Source: Limnothrix sp. BL-A-16
Lineage (GTDB): Bacteria > Cyanobacteriota > Cyanobacteriia > CACIAM-69d
DNA: 64,000 nt
Direction: 5' to 3'
Assembly: GCA_041937175.2 (NCBI GenBank)
Contig: CP166615.1
Location: 3,424,001 to 3,488,000, forward strand
Position 1 is the stretch's first letter. The number at the start of each line of letters is the position of its first letter. The notes under the pieces were generated by a model that did not search any database, was not told the DNA's origin, and was given only the letters and a program-made list of their open reading frames with translations. Shown here in pieces: positions 4,124 to 33,646 of this stretch. The position numbers and the translations under genes are program-made.

Positions 4124-5236
4124 TCAGTCTTCGGGGCGATCGACCTGGCCATGAATTGGCCCCTGAAAGCGCGGCACGAGGGTTAAGGTCAAGATCCGAT
4201 CCTGGATGCGCTGTAGCCCTAATTGCTCGATCGCCCTTTGCCCGATCGCTCCCGGTAGCCCCATCAGCCCCATCTTGAGCACAATTTGCGCCACCAAGGG
4301 CCATTGCTTCAACACCCCTCGATTGCACTGCAAGACTTGCCAGGCGAAGCGAGCGGCGGTTTTGGCGCGGCGCAGTTGGGCGGGGCCATCCAACGCCTTA
4401 AAGAGCAGATATTTGTAGCGGTTGCCCCAAATGAGGGCCCGGTGGGGAGTGAGTTGGTCGGGCGATCGGGCGATCGCCGTTTGCAGAATTTGCCGACTGA
4501 CGCGCTCCTGTCGCCACACGTTTTCCGATGAGGAGGTGGGCCGTTGGCGATAGAACACATGGCATTCGGGCACATGGGCCGCTGGAAACTGCCAAGCCAA
4601 TCGCAACCACAAATCCCAATCTTCTGAGGGAACCAAGTCTGGATTAAAGCCCCCCACTTGGCTCAAGGCCGATCGACTGACCAGCACATTAGACCCGCTG
4701 GAGACAAAATCCGTGACCAACAGGGGCCCATAGATCCAACCGCTGAAAGGGCTGATGACCGGTTGCCCGATCGCCCGGCCCGTGTCATCGGTGAGCTGAG
4801 TCCAACTGTAAACCCAACCGGCGGCGGGGTTGGCCGCCAGGGCCGCCAGTTGGGCCCGCAACTTGTCGGGATGCCAGCGATCGTCCGCATCGATGAATCC
4901 AATCCAGTTCCCCCGCGCCCGAGCGATCCCACGATTCCGGGCGATCGCCTGTCCCCCGTTGGCAAAGGCATAAACCCGAATCCGGCCATCGGCGACCGCC
5001 ATCGATTCAGCCAAGGCCCGGGAGCGATCGTGGCTGCCATCGTCAATGATCAACAGTTCCCAATCGGGTTCCGTTTGGGCCAAAATCGAGGCCACCGTAT
5101 CCGACAGGGTGTCTGCCCCATTGAACACCGGCAGCACGATCGACACCTGCGGCTGGTGGCTGTCCTCGGTGCTGTTGTCCTCGGTGTTGTGGGTTGCGGG
5201 TTTGGTGGCTCCCTTAGCCATAGAACCTGTCGTCAT
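4124..5236 (-). CDS. Glycosyltransferase family 2
   Basis: VSIVLPVFN, IIDDGS, FIDADD, SEDWDLWLRL motifs. Confidence 0.9.
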   Translation of the reverse strand: MTTGSMAKGATKPATHNTEDNSTEDSHQPQVSIVLPVFNGADTLSDTVASILAQTEPDWELLIIDDGSHDRSRALAESMAVADGRIRVYAFANGGQAIARNRGIARARGNWIGFIDADDRWHPDKLRAQLAALAANPAAGWVYSWTQLTDDTGRAIGQPVISPFSGWIYGPLLVTDFVSSGSNVLVSRSALSQVGGFNPDLVPSEDWDLWLRLAWQFPAAHVPECHVFYRQRPTSSSENVWRQERVSRQILQTAIARSPDQLTPHRALIWGNRYKYLLFKALDGPAQLRRAKTAARFAWQVLQCNRGVLKQWPLVAQIVLKMGLMGLPGAIGQRAIEQLGLQRIQDRILTLTLVPRFQGPIHGQVDRPED

Positions 5237-5367: not shown

Positions 5368-6585
5368 CTAGGCGCTGCGGAGGGCCACGATCGGATCCAG
5401 CTTGGCCGCCTGTTGGGCTGGAATTACACCAAAAAAGAGACCAATCCCACCAGAAACACCCACAGCCACCCCGATCGCGGTGCTAGAGGGGGCCGCTTCC
5501 AAGTCCGTGGCCACGCTCACCAAGGCCAAGCCGCCAACCCCAACGGCCGTGCCGATCGCCCCGCCCAAACTGGCCAAAATCGTCGCTTCAATCACAAACT
5601 GCATCAAAATATCCCGCTGGGAAGCCCCGATCGCCTTGCGCAGCCCGATTTCTTGGGTGCGTTCCGCCACCGACACCAACATGATATTGGTGATGCCAAT
5701 GCCACCCACCAGCAGGGAAATACTGGCGATCGCCACCAACATCACCTGCAACGTGCCGGTGATTGCCCCCAGGGTGTTTTGCAAATCCTGCTGGTTACGA
5801 ACGGTGAAATCATCTTCACCCACAATTTTGTGTCGTCGGCGCAGTAGGTTTTCAATCTGGAATTGGGCGGCTCGCATCACCGTTTCATCCCGCGCCGACA
5901 GGGAAATATAACTAACACTGGTTCCATAGGGCGATCGACGACCCACCAACTGGTTCGCCATGGTGCGCAGCGGCAAAAACACGGTCATGTCCATATCCAT
6001 GCCGAAGCTGGATCCCTTGGGCTGCATCACCCCAATCACCTCTGCTCGCAGGTTGCGAACGCGCACGGACTGCCCGATCGGGTCTTGGCCGTTGAACAAT
6101 TGCCGCGCCACCTCAGATCCCAACACCACCACCCGTTGCACCCGTTGGCCATCGAGCTTGGAGATAAACCGGCCCCGATCGACCTGAAAATCGCGCACCT
6201 CGGTGTAGTCCGGCGTGGTGCCAATGACGGTGACGCTAGCGTTGCGGCCCCGGTAGCTCACCACTTCGTTCCCGGTCAGCTCCGGAGCCACTGCCACCAC
6301 GGTGGGTACTTCTGTAGAAATGGCCTCCGCGTCTTCCAGCACCAGGGTTTGTGGGGGCCAAAGGGGCCGCCGATCAGCCTCCGGGCTGCCGGGGCGAATA
6401 AACAATGTATTGGGGCCCAAGGATTGCACCTCGGCGGTCACAAACCGTTGGGCCCCCTCGCCCACCCCGATCGTGGCAATCACCGAAGCATTGCCAATCA
6501 CAATCCCCAGCATGGTGAGGCTGCTGCGCAATTTGTTGGCGGCCAAGGTGGCGATCGCCATTTTGAGGCTTTCCCAGAGGTTCAT
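5368..6585 (-). CDS. MacB/FtsX-family ABC transporter permease
   Basis: NKLRSSLTMLGIVIG; GGIGITNIMLVSVAERTQEIGLRKAIGA; AAKLDPIVALRS. Confidence 0.92.
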   Translation of the reverse strand: MNLWESLKMAIATLAANKLRSSLTMLGIVIGNASVIATIGVGEGAQRFVTAEVQSLGPNTLFIRPGSPEADRRPLWPPQTLVLEDAEAISTEVPTVVAVAPELTGNEVVSYRGRNASVTVIGTTPDYTEVRDFQVDRGRFISKLDGQRVQRVVVLGSEVARQLFNGQDPIGQSVRVRNLRAEVIGVMQPKGSSFGMDMDMTVFLPLRTMANQLVGRRSPYGTSVSYISLSARDETVMRAAQFQIENLLRRRHKIVGEDDFTVRNQQDLQNTLGAITGTLQVMLVAIASISLLVGGIGITNIMLVSVAERTQEIGLRKAIGASQRDILMQFVIEATILASLGGAIGTAVGVGGLALVSVATDLEAAPSSTAIGVAVGVSGGIGLFFGVIPAQQAAKLDPIVALRSA

Positions 6586-6670
6586 CGGTAAGGGCGATCG
6601 GGTGGGCGATCAATGAGGGGACTGGAATTTGCTGTCAGAATTAATCCTAGCGAACTCCAAAAACCCTGCG

Positions 6671-6892
6671 GCGATCGCTGAGCCTAGTAGCACGGCTGTT
6701 TTAATTCGATCGGTCAAGTTCAATGACTGTTGCTGCTACCCGATCGTTAGGCAGACAAGATCTTCAGCCCCCTGTCACCACGACTGACTCCGCAACATTG
6801 ACCCACGTGCTACGAGTTGCGGTCAAAATCCCTTAGATGACGGCATATCCCGCAGTGACAGAAGAACGCCCGTAATACCGGAGTTAGACCGC
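6671..6892 (+). promoter_or_regulatory. Integron-like leader A with attI-like site (core GTTAGAC 6883-6889)
   Basis: 222-bp non-coding block repeated at 10235-10456 (about 30 mismatches by eye, no indels); ends GCCCGTAATACCGGA-GTTAGAC just before a cassette array. Confidence 0.7.
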
Positions 6893-6975
6893 ACATGCTT
6901 GATAACACCCTGCGGAGGGGAGTTATTGTGTACATGCGGTCTAATACATAGTGGGGCTTCAGTAATGGAGGTTCG

Positions 6976-7539
6976 GTGATGGTTAGTGCGTGGAATGAAA
7001 TCATTGCCCATTTGAAACACGAGCGCCTGTTCGAGTCATGTGAACTCAACGCGGGTGCGACATACTCGGAATTGGCACAACTCGAACAGCACATCGGTCA
7101 GTCACTTCCGCAAGAGCTTCATGACTTCTTGTCTGAGCACAACGGACAGAAAGTACATGCCAAGCTCGGTATCTATGTGGGCAGCGAATTGCTATCGACC
7201 GAAAGCATTTGTCAGCAGTGGGACGTTTGGCGCTCTATTGATGAGTCCACAATGAATGATGATTGTGCTGACTTCATGTCATCCAAACCGCCGGGTGCAG
7301 TAAAGCCGATGTACACCAATCGATGCTGGATTCCTATGACGCACGACTACGGCGGCAATCACGTCGGCTTAGACTTCGACCCAGGCCCAACCGGTGTCGT
7401 CGGCCAAGTCATTGCCTACGGACGGGATGAAGATGAGAAACGATTGCTAGCAAATTCATTCAAGGAGTTCCTTCCAATTCTGGTCGCAACGGTGCGAAAT
7501 GAAGACTGGTCTTTCGCCGATGAACTCCGAGGACAGTAG
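6976..7539 (+). CDS. SMI1/KNR4 (SUKH) family protein, gene cassette
   Basis: LNAGAT..ELAQLEQHIGQSLPQELHDFLSEHNGQ; WIPMTHDYGGNHVGLDFDPGPTGVVGQVIAYGRD; followed by attC. Confidence 0.88.
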   Translation: MMVSAWNEIIAHLKHERLFESCELNAGATYSELAQLEQHIGQSLPQELHDFLSEHNGQKVHAKLGIYVGSELLSTESICQQWDVWRSIDESTMNDDCADFMSSKPPGAVKPMYTNRCWIPMTHDYGGNHVGLDFDPGPTGVVGQVIAYGRDEDEKRLLANSFKEFLPILVATVRNEDWSFADELRGQ

Positions 7540-7560
7540 TAAATCGTCGAAACCAATGAC

Positions 7561-7656
7561 ACCCAACCCCTCCGTCAACCGGACCGCCTGCAAGCTGTGC
7601 TTGCAAGTTCGCTCCCGCCGGCCGGCGAAGGTGGAAGGCTACGTCCAACGTTCGCC
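7561..7656 (+). mobile_element. attC site 1
   Basis: R'' ACCCAAC ... TCAACCGGAC ... GGCTACGTCCAAC, R' GTTCGCC; imperfect palindrome just after the stop codon. Confidence 0.8.
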
Positions 7657-7715
7657 CACTAAATCACGGTCGCAATCAGTCGGTCGCCTGTCAATGATGA
7701 ATGATGTGAATACCC

Positions 7716-8156
7716 ATGTCGAAACCGAAACGCAACGATATCAGCATCGGAAAAGATAAATGGATCACGTTCGTTGAACTTGATGGCCAACAGACAAACG
7801 CGATCGAGTTGGACGAGATTCTGAAACCCATCGAACCATTCTTGAACTCGCTGGAAACTGAATGTGTCGCCGCCTGTTGCGGAGTTGATGCATACGCACT
7901 ATGGCCGGAAGACATTGCAGGTGCTGCGAAACAATCAGACATTCCCGACCTGTCGCGGTCGATTGAAACCGTACGACAACACATCATTGATTCGGGCGGG
8001 GATTCATTCGTGAGCCACCGCATGAACAACTTTTTCCACAGGCAGACTCTGTTACAGTTGATCGACCATATCGCTCAGTGCGTCGGTCATGCAGACGACG
8101 TGGGCGAACAAAGCGGTGAACCGGAGCCGCCGATCACGCGGAATTTGAAGTCATAG
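7716..8156 (+). CDS. Hypothetical cassette protein (ECVAACCG motif; DUF6331-like)
   Basis: 146-aa ORF between attC1 and attC2; cassette start GTTCGCCCAC is the reverse complement of its R'' GTGGGCGAAC. Confidence 0.75.
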   Translation: MSKPKRNDISIGKDKWITFVELDGQQTNAIELDEILKPIEPFLNSLETECVAACCGVDAYALWPEDIAGAAKQSDIPDLSRSIETVRQHIIDSGGDSFVSHRMNNFFHRQTLLQLIDHIAQCVGHADDVGEQSGEPEPPITRNLKS

Positions 8157-8193
8157 TTTCTTGGCGGCGGCCCGGTTACCGCAGCCGTTAGCC
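8103..8193 (+). mobile_element. attC site 2
   Basis: GGCGAAC-AAAGCGGTGAACCGGAGCCGCC...GGCGGCGGCCCGGTTACCGCAGCC-GTTAGCC. Confidence 0.9.
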
Positions 8194-8202
8194 GTCAAAT
8201 CC

Positions 8203-8640
8203 ATGAAAGCGATCGAGTACTCAGAAGCGGATAGACAAGGACTCGCACAAGCTCTCATGATTGCGAGATCGGGTGTCCGCTCGCACGTTTCTGAAGGTGA
8301 TGAAAAACTTCTCGGTTTCTTGCTCAGACACGGAGAATGCGATGTCGTGATTTCCGTCCTGCGTATTGAAGTGAGATTTTCATGGCTACAAAAGCGAAAA
8401 CCATCAACTTATTTCGGTGCGCTCGCGCCAGGACTTGTCACCCAATTGATGGAACTGGGGGGCATTGAATCCGTAAAGGATGCAATTGAGTTTACTGTTG
8501 GTCCTGGTAGCACTGGCTCGGATACCTACAAGTTTTTCTTCACCAAGAAATGGGTGCGGCTCACCTGTTCGGACGAAGCAATTCACATTCAAGTGCGCGA
8601 TCAACAACACGATCTGACTGCGCCGCTTCGATATGAATAA
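8203..8640 (+). CDS. Hypothetical cassette protein
   Basis: ATG at 8203 lies just after attC2 (the track's upstream start is inside attC2); no recognisable motif. Confidence 0.65.
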   Translation: MKAIEYSEADRQGLAQALMIARSGVRSHVSEGDEKLLGFLLRHGECDVVISVLRIEVRFSWLQKRKPSTYFGALAPGLVTQLMELGGIESVKDAIEFTVGPGSTGSDTYKFFFTKKWVRLTCSDEAIHIQVRDQQHDLTAPLRYE

Positions 8641-8684
8641 TCCCAGAAGCAAGTGACAACACTGACGCAATAAGACCGAAAGAC

Positions 8685-8775
8685 GGCTAACAAGGCGGCC
8701 AACCTGAGCGGTGGATCGGGCGGATTCTGAAATCAAAGGTTCTCGGTCGCCGCTGGGTTACCTTGGTCGTTAGCC
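8685..8775 (+). mobile_element. attC site 3
   Basis: GGCTAAC-AAGGCGGCCAACCTGAGCGG...CCGCTGGGTTACCTTGGTC-GTTAGCC; GACGGCTAAC complements the cassette start GTTAGCCGTC. Confidence 0.9.
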
Positions 8776-8831
8776 TGCAATCTTAGTTTCTGAATTAGCC
8801 TGAGAATGTAACTCGTGGCGAGGTTAGCAAT

Positions 8832-9653
8832 ATGAGTTTTGATTTCTCCACCGCCTCCGATTCGACAACAGATGCGTTGAGCTATTTTTCTGATCGGGGC
8901 GAAGATTACGAAAAGTACCGCCCGATTTATCCCGCTTCTGTGATCGATACAATTTTGTCAGGCTTGGGAAGTCCGACTCAGATTACTGCTGCTGATGTTG
9001 GCGCAGGAACAGGGATTGGCGCAAGATTGCTGGCAGATCGAGGGATTCAGGTTGTGGCGATCGAACCCAACGAAGACATGAGAACGGCAGCGACCCCGCA
9101 TGAAGGCGTAGAGTTTCTGGTCGGAACTGCCGAACAGACCCCTCTCAAGGATGCCTCAGTCGATTTAGTTACTTCGTTTCAAGCATTCCATTGGTTTGAT
9201 TTTGACAAAAGTCTCCAAGAGTTCCGCCGTATCCTCAAACCCAGTGGACGTTTAGCATTAACATGGAGCTTTTGGGATCAAGATGACCTTGTTTCCAAAG
9301 AATACACCCGCTTGGTTTTTGAAGCATCCAAAGATCGAGAGCACCAATCCCGATCCGAAATGCAACTGGAAACATGGTTCAAGAGCATCAGTTATCAACT
9401 GTTTTGGCAAGGGTTATGGTTGCCTTGCTTCACAAATTTAAAGCGACATCAGTTTGTGTCTAACCAATACTTAGATTCTCTAGGGCTAGTCGGTTTAGCC
9501 CGAAGTCAGGGATTTACAGCGTCTGAAGGAAGAAATTTAGAAAAACTTGTATCAGACTTAGCCGTATTTCATCAACGTTTTTGCGATCACCAAGGTTTGG
9601 TAAGATTAATTTATCGCACACACTTGTATACCGCAACTTCCAACTGTCGTTAA
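8832..9653 (+). CDS. Class I SAM-dependent methyltransferase (cassette)
   Basis: [38 protein letters not shown]. Confidence 0.9.
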
Positions 9654-9666
9654 AGTACTACTCATT

Positions 9667-10056
9667 ATGGATATAAAACCTTTACAAAAGAAAGCTAAAT
9701 CACGAGGTATTGCTATTGATGGGCAAGGTGGTTACGAGCGACATATTTTGCTGTGTACTGGATTACGTCAAAGTGGGGACACTTGTTGTCCCGCTGAAGA
9801 AGGTGCTAAAACCTGGAAATATTTGGGCAGGCGATTGAAACAACTTGCTCAAGATGGACATAATATTTATCGTACAGAGACAGAATGTTTAATGTTTTGT
9901 CGCAGTGGTCCCCTTGCCGTTGTCTACCCCGAAGGAACTTGGTACTGTGAAGTTACTCCAGAGGTTTGTGAACGTATTATTCAAGAACATTTGCTGGAAG
10001 GACAACCAGTTGAAGAATTCATTTTTGCTTGTAATCCATTGTTGAAAGACCCGTAA
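9667..10056 (+). CDS. Thioredoxin-like [2Fe-2S] ferredoxin (same cassette)
   Basis: RHILLCTG...CC...[20 protein letters not shown]...[12 protein letters not shown]. Confidence 0.88.
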
Positions 10057-10071
10057 ACACACTCCCATACA

Positions 10072-10159
10072 GGCTAACAACTTCGCTGCGCCGGAACGCC
10101 GTAATCTAGTCGGTTGAGTTGCAAAGTTTGTCTGCGTCCGGTGAGCTTGGTCGTTAGAC
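10072..10159 (+). mobile_element. attC site 4
   Basis: GGCTAAC-AACTTCGCTGCGCCGGA...TCCGGTGAGCTTGGTC-GTTAGAC; CAGGCTAAC complements the cassette start GTTAGCCTG. Confidence 0.9.
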
Positions 10160-10242
10160 GACAAAAGGCTCTGGGTATTTTTAAGGCAAAATATAATTTT
10201 GGTTCGGGTGTTCTTTTGAGAAGCGGTCATCCTAGCGATCGC
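10153..10242 (+). repeat. Trailer B (right half of the platform), copy 1
   Basis: 90 bp, GTTAGAC...TATAAT...ATCCTAGCGATCGC; repeated at 13089-13178 (about 14 mismatches by eye). Confidence 0.85.
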
Positions 10243-10456
10243 TGAGCCTAGTAGCGCGGCTGTTTTAATTCGATCGGTCAAGTCCAATGACTGTTGCTGC
10301 TACCCGATCGGTAGGGAGCGAAGGTATTAATCTCCTGATCACGACGACTGACTCCGCAACGTTGACCTATGCGCTACGAGTTGCGGTCAAAGTCCCGTAG
10401 ATGACGGTATATTCCGCAGCAACAGAAGAATGCCCATAATATCAGAATTAGACCGC
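10235..10456 (+). promoter_or_regulatory. Leader A', second attI-like platform (core ATTAGAC 10447-10453)
   Basis: Diverged direct repeat of 6671-6892. Confidence 0.7.
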
Positions 10457-10496
10457 TAGATTTTGGGCTAGGACATCAAGTATTTCAACTTAAATT

Positions 10497-10973
10497 ATGG
10501 AAAGGTTTCAAGATACAGGAGACACAATTCAATCATTTCAAGATCAGGTTCTGGTGCGCTGTCCCCATTGTGAGTCATGTGCTGTTGTGCGTTGCACCAC
10601 TCCTGAAAATTTCCGATTTTCTCCTCGCAGGTTTTCCTGCAAAGCCTGTGGCTCCTACAAAGATTGGGCTGAAAGCACAATTTCAAGAACTTGGAAAAAT
10701 GAGCCACCAGTAGATGATTATTTTCATTACCCTTTATGGTTGCAAGCGCCTTGTTGTGGCCAGACGCTTTGGGCTTACAATTTTGAACATTTAGATTTTC
10801 TTGAAGCATTTGTCAGCGCAAGATTGCGAGAAAGCCAACGCGACGAGAATGATCTTTGGTCGAATCGCAGCCTATTTTCACGCTTGCCGCGATGGATTCA
10901 ATCAGCTAAGAACCGAGAAACTATTTTGAAAGTTATCAGCAAAATTCGTCAATCAAATGAAAGTATTTTGTAG
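10497..10973 (+). CDS. Hypothetical Zn-ribbon-like protein (cassette)
   Basis: CPHC and CKAC pairs; LWLQAPCCGQTLWAYN..HL motif; first gene after leader A'. Confidence 0.75.
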   Translation: MERFQDTGDTIQSFQDQVLVRCPHCESCAVVRCTTPENFRFSPRRFSCKACGSYKDWAESTISRTWKNEPPVDDYFHYPLWLQAPCCGQTLWAYNFEHLDFLEAFVSARLRESQRDENDLWSNRSLFSRLPRWIQSAKNRETILKVISKIRQSNESIL

Positions 10974-10986
10974 CGATACTTCCTAA

Positions 10987-11117
10987 GAGAATGTCTGAGA
11001 AGTATCTTTCAGTACGGGCCAAGCATCAATTATCGTGGGGACAAGGGGCTTAAGCCCCTTATTTGCGTTGACCGCTGGAGCATATGGAGTAGCAATTTTA
11101 GCTTTTCAGACATCCTC
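10987..11117. mobile_element. MITE-like element, family 1 (131 bp), inside the cassette array
   Basis: TIRs GAGAATGTCTGAGAAG / CTTTTCAGACATCCTC; TAA duplicated on both sides; REP palindrome at 11041-11060. Confidence 0.8.
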
Positions 11118-11125
11118 TAAGAACG

Positions 11126-11274
11126 CTCTAATAACGATGATTATTCTAAAATTGTTGACAAAGTGGCATGATCTAAGAATTCTAGTGCGGCGGGCTATCG
11201 AAGATTGATTTGCAGCAAACATAACTTATGCTAAACACAAAAAAGCTTACAGTCGCTGACTAGAAACGTTAAAT
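11126..11274 (+). mobile_element. Possible degenerate attC site
   Basis: CTCTAAT (partly complements ATTAGACCGC) ... AAAC-GTTAAAT; weak internal pairing and long for an attC. Confidence 0.35.
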
Positions 11275-11333
11275 TTCGCAAAGTCAATGGATAAAAAACT
11301 ATGGCACACTAAAACTATCTTTGAGGAATATTC

Positions 11334-12314
11334 ATGAAAGCAATTGTATGTGCCAAGTATGGATCTCCCGATGCTATGCAGCTTCAAGAAGTAGAAAAAC
11401 CTACTCCTAAAGCAAACGAGGTGCTAATTAAAATCTATGCAACAACAGTAACATCAGCAGATATCCGCATCCGAAAAGCTGACCCATTCCCCGTAAGATT
11501 TTTCTACGGTTTCGCAAGACCTAAAAACAACACGATACTCGGATCGGAGCTAGCCGGAGAGATTGAAGCAGTTGGTGAAAATGTAAAACAATTCAAAGCA
11601 GGCGACAGAGTATTTGCTGGTGCAGGAACCAGTTTTGGTGCAAATGCTGAGTATATTTGTCTGCCTGAAGCAGGGGCAGTTGCGATCAAGCCTACCAATA
11701 TGACCTATGAGGAAGCTGCGGCCATTCCTTTTGGGGCAACAACCGCATTGATCTTCCTGAGAGATAAGGGAAAGATTCAGAGCGGGCAGGAAGTTTTGAT
11801 CTATGGCGCTTCTGGGGCAGTGGGGATGGCTGCCGTGCAGCTTGCCAAATTTTTTGGCGCACAAGTGACCGGATTGTGTAGTACAGCGAAATTAGAATTG
11901 GTGAAATCTCTCGGATCTGATCACGTTATTGACTATACCAAAGAGGATTTCACTCAAAACGGTAAGACCTATGACATCATTTTTGACACCAGTGGCAAAA
12001 GTCCATTTTCAGGCTGTCTCAACTCGCTAAAAAATAATGGCATCTATCTTAGAGCTGTTCATATCAATCTATTGCCGATCCTTCGAGGGCTGTGGACTTC
12101 AATGATCAGCAGCAAGAAAGTCATCGGTGGGGTGGCGATCGAGCGTAAAGCAGATCTGATTTTTCTGAAAGAGTTAATCGAAATGGGCAAGATGAAATCG
12201 GTCATCGACAGGCGTTATTCACTGGAGCAGACTGCCGAAGCTCATAGGTATGTTGAACAAGGACACAAGAAAGGGAATGTCGTCATTATTGTGGAGCAAA
12301 GCAACAAAGTCTAA
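11334..12314 (+). CDS. NAD(P)-dependent MDR-family (quinone oxidoreductase-like) dehydrogenase (cassette)
   Basis: [28 protein letters not shown]; stop TAA lies inside R'' GTCTAAC. Confidence 0.92.
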
Positions 12315-12404
12315 CAACGCTCTGCACCAGAATGTTCAATAACATTCAATAGGGTCTATTGATTTACAAAACCTGCCTGCGCTTGGTGAGTGCAACCATT
12401 GGGC
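12309..12404 (+). mobile_element. attC site with mutated R' (ATTGGGC)
   Basis: GTCTAAC-AACGCTCTGCACCAGA...TTGGTGAGTGCAACC-ATTGGGC; the next cassette ends CGCCCAAC. Confidence 0.8.
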
Positions 12405-12472
12405 GAACAAGAATCTTTGAAGAAAGTCGTAAATTGTCGCACTGGAAGCTTTTTATATTTTGGGAGAATTTG

Positions 12473-13030
12473 GTGCAACCAAAGTTGACGGATAGGCTTG
12501 TATTGAGGCCGTTCTCGGAGAGAGATGCCGAGGGATTATTTCGCTATCTGTCGAGAAAGCAAGTGAATTGCTTCGCTTCAGACAGAATTGAGACAATGGA
12601 TCAAGCAATAAAGGTTGTGGAGGAACGACAGAGAACTGATAAGTTCATTGCTGTTTGTCTTAAAGAGACTGATGAATTGATCGGAGACCTGTTTCTCCAG
12701 AAAGAGGAGCCAGACACTTACAGTGTGGGTTGGAATTTTAACGCAGACTATCAGGGAAAAGGATATGCTCTTGAGAGCGCTAAGGCGCTGCTAGACTATC
12801 TTTTTAAGGATAGAGGTGCAAGAAGAATCTACGCTTATGTGGAAGAAGACAATATTCGCTCTCAGAAGGTCTGTGAACGCCTTGGTATGAGAAAGGAAGG
12901 ATGTTTCAAGGAATTCATCACGTTCATCAATAATGATGACGGAACGCCGAGATACGAAAATACAATGCAATTTGCAATATTAAGCAAAGAATGGGATCCA
13001 ACGAAAGACATCGATATAGAGAAAAAATAG
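12473..13030 (+). CDS. GNAT (RimJ/RimL-type) N-acetyltransferase (cassette)
   Basis: TDRLVLRPF; YQGKGYALE; NIRSQKVCERLGMRKEG; GTG start after GGAG (the track's longer start lies inside the attC). Confidence 0.88.
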   Translation: MQPKLTDRLVLRPFSERDAEGLFRYLSRKQVNCFASDRIETMDQAIKVVEERQRTDKFIAVCLKETDELIGDLFLQKEEPDTYSVGWNFNADYQGKGYALESAKALLDYLFKDRGARRIYAYVEEDNIRSQKVCERLGMRKEGCFKEFITFINNDDGTPRYENTMQFAILSKEWDPTKDIDIEKK

Positions 13031-13032
13031 CC

Positions 13033-13095
13033 GCCCAACATTGACTTTAACTTGATGATTTTGGAACAAAATTGCAAGTTAAATCAGCGTTAGAC
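13033..13095 (+). mobile_element. attC site (short, 63 bp)
   Basis: GCCCAAC-ATTGACTTTAACTTG...CAAGTTAAATCAGC-GTTAGAC. Confidence 0.9.
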
Positions 13096-13178
13096 TAAAA
13101 AAGGTTCTGAGTATTCTTGAGGGAGAATATAATTTTGGCTTGGGTGTTCTCCTGAGAAGCTGTAATCCTAGCGATCGC
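13089..13178 (+). repeat. Trailer B', copy 2
   Basis: Direct repeat of 10153-10242, ending in HIP1. Confidence 0.85.
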
Positions 13179-13256
13179 CTGCCCTAGTTGCCGCCGCGAT
13201 CGCACCCGATCGACTGTGCTTGACTCACCGCGCTGACTGCTCGCCCTGTCTACCCC

Positions 13257-14255
13257 ATGACCTTCTTTAATCTGCGCCCCGACTGGCAACTGCGCGATCG
13301 CGAAGCAACGGATCCAGCCCTGTTTCTCAATCGCCGCCGCTTTTTGCAATCCCTCGCCGGGTTCAGCATTGCCGGTAGTGTTTCGTCGCTGACGGGTTGC
13401 CAAAATACACCACCCGGCGAGCTGGAAGCGGCTCCACCCCCCGGCCCCACCACCATGCGATCGCCCTTTGTTGGGGTGCAGCGCAATTCCCAATTTGCCG
13501 ATCCGCAGCGAGCCGTCACGCCCCAAGACTTGGCTGGTCGCTACAACAACTTCTATGAGTTTGGCGGAACAAAGGACATTGCCCAGCGGGCCCAACGGTT
13601 GCCCACCAATCCCTGGACCGTGGAAGTGTCTGGATTGGTCAAACAGCCTAAAACTTGGGCGATCGAGGATTTAATCAAAGCCTTTGAGATCGAAGAACGC
13701 ATCTATCGGTTTCGCTGTGTCGAAGCCTGGGCGATGGTTGTGCCCTGGCTCGGGTTTCCGATGCGCAAACTGATCGAAGCGGTCGATCCCTTGCCCGATG
13801 CTAAATTCGTCCGCTTCACCTCCTACTACAACAAAGACATCACGATCGGCCCCGGTTGGTCTCTCCGGGAGTTGCCTTGGCCCTACACCGAAGGCTTGCG
13901 GATTGAGGAAATGGCCAATGAGCTAGCCTTTTTCGCGGTGGGTAATTACGGCCAGATTTTGCCGAAGCAGCATGGCGCGCCAATTCGGGCCGTCTTGCCT
14001 TGGAAGTACGGCTTCAAGGGGGCTAAGTCGATCGTCAAAATTGAATTTTTGCCCCGTCAGCCCCTGACCTTTTGGAACACTCTGGCCCCTGATGAATATG
14101 GCTTTGAGGCCAATGTGGATCCCCTTGTGCCTCATCCCCGTTGGTCTCAGGCCACGGAGCGGTTATTGGGGTCGGGCCCGCCGCTGGCCTGGAAAACGGT
14201 TCCCACCCGTCCCTACAACGGCTATGGAAAATGGGTTTCTGGTCTTTATGCCTAG
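13257..14255 (+). CDS. msrP: Protein-methionine-sulfoxide reductase catalytic subunit
   Basis: Tat motif NRRRFL; YNNFYEFG; ERIYRFRCVEAW; PWKYGFK; HPRWSQATER. Confidence 0.95.
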   Translation: MTFFNLRPDWQLRDREATDPALFLNRRRFLQSLAGFSIAGSVSSLTGCQNTPPGELEAAPPPGPTTMRSPFVGVQRNSQFADPQRAVTPQDLAGRYNNFYEFGGTKDIAQRAQRLPTNPWTVEVSGLVKQPKTWAIEDLIKAFEIEERIYRFRCVEAWAMVVPWLGFPMRKLIEAVDPLPDAKFVRFTSYYNKDITIGPGWSLRELPWPYTEGLRIEEMANELAFFAVGNYGQILPKQHGAPIRAVLPWKYGFKGAKSIVKIEFLPRQPLTFWNTLAPDEYGFEANVDPLVPHPRWSQATERLLGSGPPLAWKTVPTRPYNGYGKWVSGLYA

Positions 14256-31294: not shown

Positions 31295-33646
31295 TTAAGC
31301 TGGAGGGGCAGCGGTGTCTGATTCTGAGGCTGCGGCCTGGGCCCGATCGCCCAGGGATTGCAGCCATTGACCCAGGGCCGGAGACTTGGACGTGAATTGC
31401 ACCAAAACGTGATCCGGGCGATCGGGACTGGGGAGCACTTTGACATAAACTTCGCGGTTTTCCGGGCCTGGGGGCAGGGTATCCGGGGCTGAGGCTTCTG
31501 CCAGGTTCAGCTTGAGATTTGTTAGGGGCTTGGTTAAGGCCTGGGGGTTCGGGGCCGGGGCATTGCTGTCCGGGTCGATTGCCCCTTGGATTTTCAGCCA
31601 ACCGCCTTTGGCAGACAACTCCACCAACGCAACGGCCCAAGCCTGACTGCTGACATGTTTGCCATCCAGGGGTTGGGCGGTGAATTGCAAGGGGGCGATC
31701 GGGTAGTAGGTTTCCTGGGCCCGTTCCAGGGTGAGGTGATAGGGCGCACCCACGCCGCCCACGTCGTAAATGGTGATTGGTTCGGGAACGCCCTTAGGCT
31801 GTACCTGTTGGGTGGCGGCAATGTTGACGTAATCGGAGCCGCCAGCTTCTTCAAGGGCCGATTCGGTAATTAGAATTTGTCCCCCGATCGTGTAGGACTC
31901 AATCCGATAGGTCAGGTTGACTTGGGCCCCCACCACGCCATATTTAGCCCGTTTGTAGGAACCAATGTTGCCGACCACCACTTCGCCCGTGTTGATACCA
32001 ATGCCCATTTCCAAGGGTTGGTAGCCCATTTCGCGCATTTTGGCATTCACACCGCCCATGGCTTGCTGCATGGCGATCGCGCAGGCGATCGCCCGTTTGC
32101 CATCGTCCGATCGGGTGGTGGGAGCCCCAAACAACACCAAAATTCCATCCCCCATAAACTCATCGATCGTGCCCTGAAAGTCCGTGATCGCATCGGCCAT
32201 GGCTTCCAGGTAGAGGTTAATGATTTCGATCACCCTTTCCGGGGGCAACCGTTCGGCGGTGGCCGTGAACCCTCGCAGATCGGAGGTCAAGATGGTGATT
32301 TTTCGCCGCTCCCCGCCCATTTTTAGGCCTTCGGGATCTTCCAGCAGGTTGGCCACCACTTCATTGTTCAGATATCGGCCAAAGGTGTTGCGAATCTGGC
32401 CGGCGGTGCGGGCCAGGTAAAGGGCCACCATGGTCGCTCCCACCAACCAAGACAGCAGGGGCGGCACAAAGGGAACCCACAGGCCTTGGATCATCGCCCC
32501 TTGGCAAATTCCCCACAACAGCAACACCAAGCCGCCGGAACCTCCAATGCCCCAAATGGCAATCCAACGGCGCGAGTCCGGCAGCCGCAACAGCCAAGCC
32601 AAGGTGGAACCAACGGCGGCCCAGCCCACAATCCACAACCACTCGATCGGCTCCTGCCAGGTGGTGAGGAGGGGGCGATTGTCGAGGGCGGCGGCAATCA
32701 CTTCGCTGGTGAAGTGGGCGTGGATTTCAACCCCGGCCATTCTTTGGGGCAGCTCTAGGGGTTTGCCGCTATAGGGCGTGAGGAAGAGATCGCGGCCGCT
32801 TTCGCTGATGTTGCCAATCAGCACCACCCGATCGCGGGCCCAGTTGGCGGGGAGTTTGCCATCCACCAAATCCCGCAAGGAAACGGTTTCAAAGGAGCCA
32901 CTCCCGCCACGATAGTTCAGCAGCAGTTGGTTGCCCGCATCGTTGGCATGGATGTAGCCGCCGTCATGGCTCCGAAACCGCCGAAAAATGGCGTTTTTGA
33001 GCTGAAAGGCTCCGGGTTCGGCGGCCACGGATTCGGGTGCGACGTTTTCTGGGTATAGATACAGCAGGGCCAGGTAAAGACCCAAACCGTAGATTTTGTT
33101 GTCTTCTACGTCTTGGGTATCGATTAAAACCCGCCGCACTTTGCCATCCGCATCCACCACAAAATCATTGGTGCCCACTTGCCCTTTAGCGGCCAGGGCA
33201 GGAGGCGCGGCCACCCGATCGGCGGCGGTTTCCCCCCGCACCTTGGCAATGCCCACCAGGTAATCGGTGTTGTTAAACAGGCGCACCAGGTTGGCGTGGC
33301 CGGGTTCCTGGGGCAAGTCGCGGTAAATATCCAACCCGATCGCCCGGGGGCCCATGGCCTTTAACCGTTCGATCGCCTGGGCATAGACCCCATCGGGCAG
33401 GGTTGTGGTGCCAAACCGCTGCAAGTCGGCATCGGTGATCCCCACAATTGCCACGCGCCGATCGGGAGCCTCCGCCGGCCGGGCCTGGAGCATTTGGTCA
33501 TAGGCCAACCATTCCAGCCCTTGCAGCAGACCCAATTCCCGCATTCCCAAAACGAAGCCGGTGGCTGTGGGAACCGCCAGCAGCACGCCTCGCCACTGCC
33601 AGACCCACCGTTTGAGGATCTTGGTCCAGGATTTCATAACTGCCAC
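31295..33646 (-). CDS. CHASE2-domain class III nucleotide cyclase (Cya2-like)
   Basis: AIGLDIYRD and GVEIHA (CHASE2); 3 TM segments; SDLRGFT; IDEFMGDG; KYGVVGAQVNLTYRIES. Confidence 0.92.
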   Translation of the reverse strand: MAVMKSWTKILKRWVWQWRGVLLAVPTATGFVLGMRELGLLQGLEWLAYDQMLQARPAEAPDRRVAIVGITDADLQRFGTTTLPDGVYAQAIERLKAMGPRAIGLDIYRDLPQEPGHANLVRLFNNTDYLVGIAKVRGETAADRVAAPPALAAKGQVGTNDFVVDADGKVRRVLIDTQDVEDNKIYGLGLYLALLYLYPENVAPESVAAEPGAFQLKNAIFRRFRSHDGGYIHANDAGNQLLLNYRGGSGSFETVSLRDLVDGKLPANWARDRVVLIGNISESGRDLFLTPYSGKPLELPQRMAGVEIHAHFTSEVIAAALDNRPLLTTWQEPIEWLWIVGWAAVGSTLAWLLRLPDSRRWIAIWGIGGSGGLVLLLWGICQGAMIQGLWVPFVPPLLSWLVGATMVALYLARTAGQIRNTFGRYLNNEVVANLLEDPEGLKMGGERRKITILTSDLRGFTATAERLPPERVIEIINLYLEAMADAITDFQGTIDEFMGDGILVLFGAPTTRSDDGKRAIACAIAMQQAMGGVNAKMREMGYQPLEMGIGINTGEVVVGNIGSYKRAKYGVVGAQVNLTYRIESYTIGGQILITESALEEAGGSDYVNIAATQQVQPKGVPEPITIYDVGGVGAPYHLTLERAQETYYPIAPLQFTAQPLDGKHVSSQAWAVALVELSAKGGWLKIQGAIDPDSNAPAPNPQALTKPLTNLKLNLAEASAPDTLPPGPENREVYVKVLPSPDRPDHVLVQFTSKSPALGQWLQSLGDRAQAAASESDTAAPPA

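Follow-up and report, generated by a model that had tools for sequence, protein, structure and literature searches.

In this analysis we examined a 64,000-nucleotide stretch of the complete 4.56-Mb genome of Limnothrix sp. BL-A-16 (contig CP166615.1, positions 3,424,001 to 3,488,000; the whole stretch is called the window). Positions 6671 to 13178 hold an island of gene cassettes arranged as A, array 1, B, A', array 2, B', in which A' repeats A and B' repeats B. We conclude, with a probability of about 0.8, that this island is a real cassette array and a decayed ordinary sedentary chromosomal integron, with the identity and anatomy described below. Judged from its sequence, the conserved segment heading the cassettes is an ordinary integron's attI site, and what it heads are genuine integron cassettes. 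No integrase gene stands beside the array, as it would in a complete integron. That the sites are still in use today we put at somewhat under even odds. An earlier note on this DNA had already proposed genuine cassettes headed by an attI, which is borne out by the attC folds, the cassette start sequences and the attI homologues. Its further proposal, a special landing pad of about 300 bp, does not hold. Below, G000 denotes this genome, G001 a draft genome of the same genus, and G002 and G007 genomes of the same family; L-numbers are extracted loci, and X1, X3, X12 and X13 are sequencing runs whose contigs were compared with the window. A slash within a motif marks a crossover. The parts of the platform are as follows.

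6817–6951, plus strand: attI of a Spirulina-type integron, placed by homology to 12 loci of other genomes and by the point at which relatives diverge
6671–6678, no strand assigned: octamer of the highly iterated palindrome HIP1, GCGATCGC, the start of A, placed by sequence and alignment of junctions
6684–6816, plus strand: copy of the miniature inverted-repeat transposable element (MITE) MITE-1 inside A, terminal inverted repeats CTAGTAGC...GCTACGAG, with 47 further blastn hits in the genome
10154–10234, plus strand: B, 81 nt in length and opening with TTAGAC immediately after the final attC of array 1, a copy of B'
10235–10456, plus strand: A', consisting of HIP1, MITE-1 (10248–10380) and an attI remnant (10381–10456), placed by alignments
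13090–13178, plus strand: B' followed by HIP1, placed by the repeat search and junction alignment

Within attI we recognise a degenerate first palindromic unit at about 6831–6873 and a second hairpin with arms at 6884–6898 and 6930–6944, followed by an L box (GTCTAAT, 6939–6945), a spacer and the crossover G/T at 6951/6952 (GTCTAATACATAG/T). The platform conserved in relatives extends to 6951. G001 matches the window from the neighbouring macB gene through A to 6952 and then diverges. Its two arrays open CATAG/TTATCT and CATAG/TTCGAC, and the first cassette of its array 2 carries an attC R'' box, GTCGAAC, that is the exact complement of the start TTCGAC. The divergence at 6952 together with this exact complement places the junction at 6951/6952, behind the hairpin 6884–6944. 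Sequences part directly behind CATAG in G000, in both G001 arrays and in the metagenome contig L109. The crossover had been placed in the earlier note at the RTTAGAC motif that ends A; the actual junction lies 59 nt further on, after the hairpin. The hairpin was also considered as an inverted attC or a tiny cassette, and this was ruled out because every relative has it as a conserved piece of the platform.

A search with the core pattern (GTTAT, 8 N, T, N, CGGTCTAATRYATAG) in a collection of one genome per species returned 12 loci in other genomes, all of which align to 6817–6951 over about 135 nt. Every one of them reads ATAG/TT, continued by 9 different hexamers among the 12, which is the joining at a single fixed G/TT expected of an attI. 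The position expected of an attI, between intI and the first cassette, is not found here, as the genome contains no intI. Intact cyanobacterial integrons have a comparable boundary. By eye, 13 of the 20 best cyanobacterial loci with an intact intI show ...AG/TT(A/G)G.C at 150–400 nt from the start of intI, and these 13 boundaries are preceded by GATAACACCC...GGAGTTAT units, the same motifs as in the hairpin of the window. The core of the window (TCTAATACATAG/TT) and that of class 1 attI1 (CCTAAAACAAAG/TT, taken from plasmid record NZ_CP012168.1) agree in 11 of 14 bases, with the crossover G/TT in the same place. Upstream the two are unrelated, attI1 being made of direct repeats, whereas the window attI is predicted to form two palindromic hairpin units.

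This type of attI is found beside the debris of intI. At 3 of the 12 external loci tblastn detects a divergently placed intI remnant about 10 nt beyond attI: 256 codons in L065, 64% identical to an intact cyanobacterial IntI and broken off before the catalytic C-terminus, 73 codons in L076 and 59 in L067. L066 and L074 apparently keep only the first few intI codons, as judged by eye. In the window there are 0 intI codons, and the MITE abuts attI. The occurrence of homologous attI sites beside intI remnants identifies the window site as that of a decayed ordinary integron. An intI adjacent to A in relatives had been named in the earlier note as the mark of such simple decay, and the remnants supply it. 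The L065 contig is binned to a metagenome-assembled genome labelled Bacteroidota, through either a mis-binned contig or cross-phylum transfer. An integron integrase 53% identical to the L065 remnant is encoded at 32030–32779 of NZ_CP083584.1, a 58.5-kb plasmid of a freshwater cyanobacterium; an integrase on a cyanobacterial plasmid makes a supply of IntI from a mobile element conceivable.

Only part of A is integron sequence: A is a HIP1 octamer followed by a 133-nt host MITE and the first 76 nt of the integron attI. The repeat search aligns A (6671–6892) with A' (10235–10456) over 222 nt at 86%, as had been estimated (blastn against the whole 4.56-Mb genome, E 7.6e-72). B (10152–10255) and B' (13088–13191) align over 104 nt at 82% (E 7e-23); these repeats are real, the earlier figures having been 90 bp and about 84%. 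The terminal motifs also read as reported, GTTAGAC at the end of A, ATTAGAC at the end of A' and GTTAGAC at the start of both B and B'. Genome-wide, blastn confines B and the final ~75–76 nt of A (6817–6892) to this locus. MITE-1, in contrast, belongs to a family of dispersed elements of about 150 nt with ends CTAGTAGC...GCTACTAG (alignment of 30 copies), and copies are found in G001 and G002 as well. The bulk of A has the properties of a MITE, being short, non-coding, present in many dispersed copies and bounded by terminal inverted repeats. The A+B pad of about 300 bp thus dissolves, its integron part being the attI at 6817–6951.

A' carries the same MITE-1 copy, at 10248–10380, with the same internal deletion near the right end of the element. 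Among the 30 aligned copies this deletion is shared only by A and A', indicating that both descend from one MITE insertion; a first palindrome destroyed in the same way in each likewise speaks for a single origin. Of attI, A' retains the degenerate first unit with the left-hand arm of hairpin 2, and lacks both the right-hand arm and the core of the crossover. The likeness between A and A' ends at 6892 because A' has lost the next 59 nt. In G001, A' has kept the core and lost other parts. The two intact pads of the earlier note are therefore not present in this genome, where A' has no core. A second family, MITE-2 (~140 nt, about 750 blastn rows genome-wide), has a copy at 10982–11122, just behind the stop codon of the cassette 5 open reading frame (ORF). 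The G000 genome is unusually rich in small repeats.

The seven cassettes, all on the plus strand, are as follows.

6952–7650, plus strand: cassette 1, SUKH-1 (SMI1/KNR4) immunity-type protein (ORF 6976–7539; Pfam PF09346, 2.7e-20), attC 7561–7656
7651–8187, plus strand: cassette 2, DUF6331 protein (ORF 7716–8156; PF19856, 1.4e-29), attC of canonical fold at 8103–8193, start TTCGCC with R'' GGCGAAC
8188–8769, plus strand: cassette 3, ORF with probable start 8203 and end 8640, attC fold at 8685–8775, start TTAGCC with R'' GGCTAAC
8770–10153, plus strand: cassette 4, S-adenosylmethionine-dependent methyltransferase (8832–9653) and 2Fe-2S ferredoxin-like protein (9667–10056), attC fold at 10072–10159, start TTAGCC with R'' GGCTAAC
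10457–11267, plus strand: cassette 5, ORF 10497–10973 of no known family, MITE-2 at 10982–11122, attC 11171–11274 with R'' ATCTAAG and R' G/TTAAAT
11268–12398, plus strand: cassette 6, zinc-type alcohol dehydrogenase / quinone oxidoreductase (ORF 11334–12314; ADH_zinc_N_2, 1.1e-23, and ADH_N), attC fold at 12309–12404 with R' A/TTGGGC
12399–13089, plus strand: cassette 7, GNAT acetyltransferase (ORF with probable start about 12473 and end 13030; Acetyltransf_3, 1.6e-26), attC 13033–13095, start TTGGGC with R'' GCCCAAC

The cargo is typical of cassettes. Two ORFs belong to no known family, and for that of cassette 3 there was no match in Pfam or NCBIfam. The products of cassette 4 match Methyltransf_11 of Pfam (1.2e-22) and an NCBIfam 2Fe-2S ferredoxin model (9.5e-13, below its cut-off). 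Six attC sites had been counted before; we count seven, of 63–104 nt, placed by script listing or by model, with the methyltransferase and ferredoxin-like ORFs together in a single cassette. In the repeat search, array 1 and array 2 are not connected by any long repeat, in agreement with the earlier statement that they have no cassette in common.

An attC was defined by an R'' box RYYYAAC and an R' box G/TTRRRY, inverted and 50–150 nt apart at the 3' end of a cassette. The R'' boxes read, in order, ACCCAAC, GGCGAAC, GGCTAAC, GGCTAAC, ATCTAAG, GTCTAAC and GCCCAAC, and the R' boxes GTTCGCC, GTTAGCC, GTTAGCC, GTTAGAC, GTTAAAT, ATTGGGC and GTTAGAC, so that inverted core boxes are present throughout, with two of the seven sites off consensus by one base. 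The attC at 7561–7656 was placed by its fold and by the start of the next cassette, TTCGCC, the complement of that cassette's own R'' GGCGAAC. A consensus fold was calculated with RNAalifold from six sites, four from the window and two from G001. It has a 7-bp R''/R' stem and a 4-nt unpaired spacer, followed by an L''/L' stem whose '' arm carries two bulged bases. Eight of its 20 pairs show compensatory changes, and the whole is an imperfect palindrome, as expected of attC. One bulged column in the 5' ('') arm is an A in 6/6 sequences, that is, a T on the bottom strand.

A covariance model built on the same six sites (R1) recovers the non-training site 11171–11274 with 29.1 bits (E 1.5e-5). 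Run on 32 loci from other cyanobacteria, it returns 26 hits with E values no higher than 1, some of them behind orphan platforms, and among its matches are seven correctly oriented sites beside genuine intI genes (L044, three in L050, L060 and two in L057). These last hits show that the model is not merely circular. Rfam at gathering thresholds finds 0 families in the window. A hand-written attC scanner proved too strict, returning one true site and one shifted one, and was replaced by the covariance model.

A cassette that has been circularised and inserted at G/TT bears a trace of it, in that its first hexamer complements its own R''. This rule is exact in five of the seven cassettes of the window: 2, 3, 4, 5 ((T)TAGAT with ATCTAAG) and 7. 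Among first cassettes behind an attI it is exact in 8 of 14, namely in G001 array 2, L109, L068, L071, L072, L074, contig C90 of G001 and the G000 copy p3 described below.

B is the original right half of the attI site, now at the distal end of the array. The contig L109 shows the arrangement in its simplest form. It has an attI 93% identical to 6831–6952, CATAG/TTATGC, one 3.8-kb two-gene cassette whose attC R'' (GCATAAC) is the exact complement of the start TTATGC, G/TTAGAC with one B, and then msrP. Without its cassette L109 would read GTCTAAT-ACATAG/TTAGAC, two inverted boxes with a 7-nt spacer. The arrangement supports the view that attI and B were once continuous, as the earlier note had supposed in making B the displaced right half, and it demonstrates that a single-unit form exists. 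Outside this locus B is absent from the rest of the genome, from the family and from the intI loci.

The three junctions between flank and A, between B and A' (HIP1 at 10235–10242) and between B' and flank (HIP1 at 13171–13178) all lie at HIP1 octamers, and HIP1 is the probable microhomology behind the segmental duplication. The divergence between copies is 14% for A/A' and 18% for B/B', compared with 7% between the flanks of G000 and G001. This excess, and the presence of the layout in G001, point to a duplication that took place before the two genomes separated. In their left halves, the two platform copies of one genome resemble each other more than orthologous copies do, which points to gene conversion. 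Behind B', 18–26 nt (CTGCCCTAGTTGCC...) resemble the start of an A without MITE. Together with a 12-mer, TAATCCTAGCGA, that brackets the island, this suggests that the repeated unit may be B-A, or that the island once entered whole. An empty macB-msrP site was sought without success: G002 has its msrP match starting 86 nt from the end of a contig and yielded no macB, and in four other carrier genomes macB and msrP lie on different contigs or are too diverged.

The genome contains no integron integrase by any search used. The best match to the IntI model TIGR02249 in this complete genome reaches 57 bits against a cut-off of 265, with model positions 182–232 unmatched, which we take to be a stretch of the IntI-specific domain. 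In a tblastn search of the whole genome with nine cyanobacterial IntI proteins, only an Xer-like gene was found (26–29% identity), and nothing else below E 0.04. The sole PF00589 tyrosine recombinase of the genome (C1:1647960-1648454) lies far outside the window, which accords with the earlier statement that the window has none. The full Xer-like protein (C1:1647960-1648724) scores 182 bits with XerC/XerD and 99 bits with the IntI model. A MITE-1 copy with a duplicated 18-nt stretch lies ~650 nt from this gene, at G000:C1:1647173-1647292. Above the TIGR02249 cut-off there is no intI in any of eight genomes of the order, whereas across the class 127 of 401 sampled genomes exceed it. Five further platform-bearing genomes have none either (0/5); one of these is G002 by identical hit coordinates, so that four are added. 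The unlinked resident IntI of the earlier note is therefore not there, and any servicing of the sites must be from outside or have occurred in the past.

The cargo differs between close relatives, as the earlier note had expected for the junction. Where array 1 of this genome has four cassettes, that of G001 has a two-ORF cassette unlike them, and L109 has yet another. In array 2 only the attI-proximal first cassette differs from G001, the alcohol dehydrogenase cassette 6 and the GNAT cassette being common to both at 93%. A similar pattern is seen behind another attI of this genome, C1:1608311 (copy p3), where the proximal 4.3 kb are specific to G000 and the distal cargo is common with G001 at 94%; the first cassette there obeys the complement rule (TTGTGC with GCACAAC). 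One X1 contig joins 12396 directly to 13088. The 691 nt skipped correspond to the length of cassette 7, and to its position given an A>G change of X1 at 12398; the X1 contigs are otherwise nearly identical to the window. Since the MITE is the same in both platform copies, intI was lost before A and A' were duplicated, and hence before the split between G000 and G001. From this we infer that cargo near attI has changed since the local loss, and that an IntI must therefore have acted in trans. In G001 an insertion sequence (IS) with 24-nt inverted ends (L040 6041–6166, L041 1–124) interrupts the second ORF of array 1, which explains the break between contigs C47 and C30.

The window site is one of several. 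This genome has four copies of the core in its hairpin context, the one in the window and those at C1:1608311, C1:1601700 and C1:3786929, and each copy heads a stretch of low G+C. With up to three mismatches the core pattern is found four times in G000, five times in G001, once in G002 and twice in G007; it is absent from four genomes of a third genus, and the reversed control pattern gave 0 matches everywhere. At G000:C1:1601700-1608480 (L063 11700–18480, minus strand) two attI sites 6.6 kb apart form a second tandem pair in a 16-kb low-G+C island. The host gene in front of the upstream site has its last ~150 nt copied in front of the downstream one. The cargo of this pair is only partly cassette-like, with one strong attC (L063 17352–17436) and some genes on the opposite strand. 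The orphan core at G000:C1:3786912-3786943 (L064 about 4840–4945; GTCTAATGTATAG/TTAGAG) heads 7.5 kb of 33–50% G+C with a 760-aa ORF first; R1 found no attC behind it.

A third tandem pair (L075 and L069) lies in a metagenome-assembled genome, with a 78-aa helix-turn-helix (HTH) gene before the first attI and a truncated copy of it before the second. G001 has a second tandem pair as well, in which an attC lies about 25 nt upstream of the module preceding the second attI. The 25-mer behind this attC has no second copy, which leaves the G001 second pair without a counterpart to B and B'. We conclude that attI modules have been duplicated in tandem three times independently. In L071 (4653–4889), and likewise in L075, a 78-aa XRE-type HTH ORF lies directly upstream of attI, codirectional with the cassettes and adjoining a divergent 88-aa ORF; truncated copies of the HTH gene precede attI in L068, L069, L070 and L072. 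From its placement, the 78-aa protein may bind the palindromic units of attI.

Three features frame the island.

5368–6585, minus strand: MacB/FtsX-type permease gene, left flank (Pfam MacB_PCD, 2.2e-52; FtsX, 2.9e-18)
13257–14255, plus strand: MsrP-like molybdopterin oxidoreductase gene, right flank (Pfam Oxidored_molyb, 2.1e-29)
6642–6658, plus strand: left copy of a direct repeat of 12–17 nt (TAATCCTAGCGA...), whose right copy is at 13163–13179, the pair bracketing the whole island

The permease gene is read away from the island and sits where intact integrons carry intI. The G+C content of the island is 39–52%, and that of the flanks about 55–64%. The bracketing 12-mer TAATCCTAGCGA has only two copies in the 4.56-Mb genome, at 6642–6653 and 13163–13174, exactly where the island begins and ends; where B meets A' (10227–10238) there is a near-copy, TCATCCTAGCGA. 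The 12-mer could be a target duplication; alternatively it may have served as the att core in an old integration, or be the tail end of a third B that was truncated. A scan of 6400–13400 for promoters and terminators gave 13 promoter-like sites, with 8.6 +/- 2.8 expected, and no promoter-like site in the platform that reads into the cassettes.

The tandem layout is no misassembly, a possibility raised by the earlier note. A 5751-nt X3 contig covers 6400–11020 of the window with 12 differences, an X1 contig covers 6721–10286 with none, and G001 has the parts in the same order. Joints from 6796 to 10991 (X13, 28 nt on the shorter side) and from 11060 to 10344 (X1, X12) were set aside as MITE-to-MITE artefacts. 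The array 1 contig depth in X1 and X13 is about one third of that of the flanks, a hint only, as this depth is not readable as a share of cells.

These observations can be joined into a history. An ancestral integron of a type common to several filamentous cyanobacteria has left behind the attI at 6817–6951 and seven cassettes. Its intI has been removed to within about 10 nt of the expected start codon, where a host MITE now stands. Cassettes were inserted by integron-type recombination at the G/TT after GTCTAATACATAG (6951/6952). The module of MITE, attI, cassettes and B was then probably duplicated in tandem, by illegitimate or homologous exchange at HIP1, to give A, array 1, B, A', array 2, B'; an exchange at the HIP1 octamers of sister or incoming copies would have exactly this outcome. 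The two copies would since have decayed differently, A' losing its core in this genome. Where IntI acted in trans, it may have come from a since-lost copy or have been brought temporarily by a mobile element.

Several observations weigh against this reading. The junction of this genome is CATAG/TG instead of G/TT, and the first palindromic unit of attI is destroyed by changes common to A, A' and the A of G001. No fully intact intI has yet been seen beside this type of attI. The model R1 was trained on the island's own sites, misses 7561–7656 and gives 13033–13095 only 12.5 bits (E 0.64). The start-hexamer rule fails for cassettes 1 and 6 of the window, and among the 14 first cassettes it is unmet in six (L066, L073, L076, L106a, L100 and window cassette 1). 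For the deletion of cassette 7 the evidence is a single metagenome contig, its shorter side 36 nt long and matched at 90% likeness. A plain duplication leaves the 12-nt bracketing repeat unexplained, and the order of insertion, MITE entry and duplication can be reconstructed only indirectly, because no genome with an empty macB-msrP site was found. Finally, the A' core is lost here, and MITEs and, in G001, an IS have entered the island.

The orphan attI sites could be live docking sites in a lineage without any intI, several copies still gaining and losing cassettes at their exact G/TT, with tandem duplication multiplying the sites and the recombinase coming from outside, on a plasmid or phage, or being a resident non-IntI enzyme; we hold this view tentatively, at less than an even chance. 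The island might instead be a dead fossil, its cargo differences having arisen by differential loss from a larger old array and by homologous replacement of whole arrays across the flanks after natural transformation, an explanation we take seriously although we incline against it. The absence of intI from the eight genomes of the order and from the four further carriers speaks for a fossil, and the decayed first unit, the lost A' core and the entry of MITEs and an IS fit relaxed selection. The mosaic likeness among the four platform copies likewise shows gene conversion or homologous exchange, for which the conserved A and B would act as homology arms. Differential loss and replacement account less easily for lineage-specific first cassettes joined at the exact G/TT with R'' complements obeyed (G001 array 2, L109 and G000 p3), as homologous replacement would require a donor array that had itself been assembled at an identical attI. 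Nor are they readily reconciled with attI-proximal cargo that differs while distal cargo is common, at both A' and p3, or with a variant lacking exactly one cassette in a population almost identical to this genome.

As for the enzyme, the Xer-like protein is the only PF00589 protein of the genome, and a similar gene is present in 5/5 further carrier genomes searched. The same search matches in 14/14 control genomes, so that it looks like a housekeeping gene; it prefers XerC/XerD to the IntI model (182 against 99 bits) and leaves IntI-model positions 182–232 uncovered, and the sites show IntI-type attC architecture. That it recombines these sites is hardly credible. A dedicated stand-alone pad of about 300 bp, distinct from integrons and CALINs (attC clusters that have no integron integrase), with two working copies and an unlinked resident IntI, would agree with the conservation of A and B on both sides of both arrays, with the same layout in G001, and with orphan attI at three loci of this genome and in 4/8 family genomes. 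It is very improbable nonetheless, given that most of A is dispersed MITE, that homologous attI adjoins intI remnants, that A' is without its crossover core here and no IntI is resident, and that B is confined to this locus. We also regard as unlikely that B-A' is a mobile cassette-like module containing an attI, in which a circle closed at CATAG/TTAGAC was inserted by IntI into an attC (attI x attC) and split one array in two. The bounds of such a module are suggestive, with G/TTAGAC of an attC on the left and, in G001, the G/TT of attI on the right; B and B' each adjoin an attC of their own, the point of attachment being the same base in both, and the second pair of G001 has its attC just upstream of the module before the second attI. 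A plain tandem duplication of attI, array and B gives the same boundaries, however, and the junction between B and A' lies at HIP1, as do both outer ends. The other pairs duplicate part of a host gene or an HTH gene, which a cassette-like circle would not carry, and the G001 25-mer has no second copy. Among these possibilities, the decayed ordinary integron is the reading we retain.

In the literature such an island belongs with CALINs, defined in the available part of the source as two or more attC sites with no intI within 4 kb (2016, PMC4889954). The earlier note had set it apart from them; with seven attC sites and no intI in the window or genome, it is a CALIN by definition. According to the same text, genomes devoid of intI account for half of all CALINs, for 95% no intI pseudogene can be recognised in the neighbourhood, and IntegronFinder seeks attI only by exact match to classes 1–3 (PMC4889954). 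Given that search, whether CALINs in general keep an attI is unrecorded in that part of the source. The island differs in keeping a recognisable attI, in two tandem copies, with three more orphan attI in the genome. It shares with complete cyanobacterial sedentary integrons (L044–L062) the attC architecture, the GATAACACCC...GGAGTTAT units, the ...ATAG/TTAG.C boundary and cassettes read away from attI, and is distinguished from them by the lack of an integrase, by the MITE and permease gene at the place of intI and by the tandem attI-array module.

Insertion of cassettes at secondary genomic sites (attG), giving single attC sites lacking integron integrases (SALINs), has been shown for delivered IntI, at sites that differ from attI in sequence and structure, as far as the partial text of that report goes (Loot et al., bioRxiv 10.1101/2022.09.11.507474). 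It provides a comparable route for cassettes into integrase-less genomes, with IntI from a mobile element; in contrast, the docking site in the window is a true attI homologue, used repeatedly at the same base. The fixation of arrays at one chromosomal position across a genus has a parallel in the chromosomal integrons of Xanthomonas, in what is available of that study (bioRxiv 10.1101/2025.06.18.660453). A limited literature search found no paper on orphan or tandem attI in cyanobacteria, which is no proof of absence. What is new is a matter of degree: here attI outlives its integrase across a whole order, multiplies, has been duplicated in tandem three times and shows cassette-exact differences between close relatives.

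CALINs are common, their origin and activity are unsettled, and standard tools seek attI for classes 1–3 only. Here one type of attI forms a series, standing beside intI remnants of 256, 73, 59 and 0 codons, and it offers a testable system, with a defined 135-nt site, known attC partners and hosts that are not pathogens. If the sites are still used, cassette capture would be decoupled from the carriage of an integrase, and surveys that count intI would underestimate the places where cassettes can land. Should the orphan sites indeed be live, what is durably inherited of an integron would be its docking site and not its integrase.

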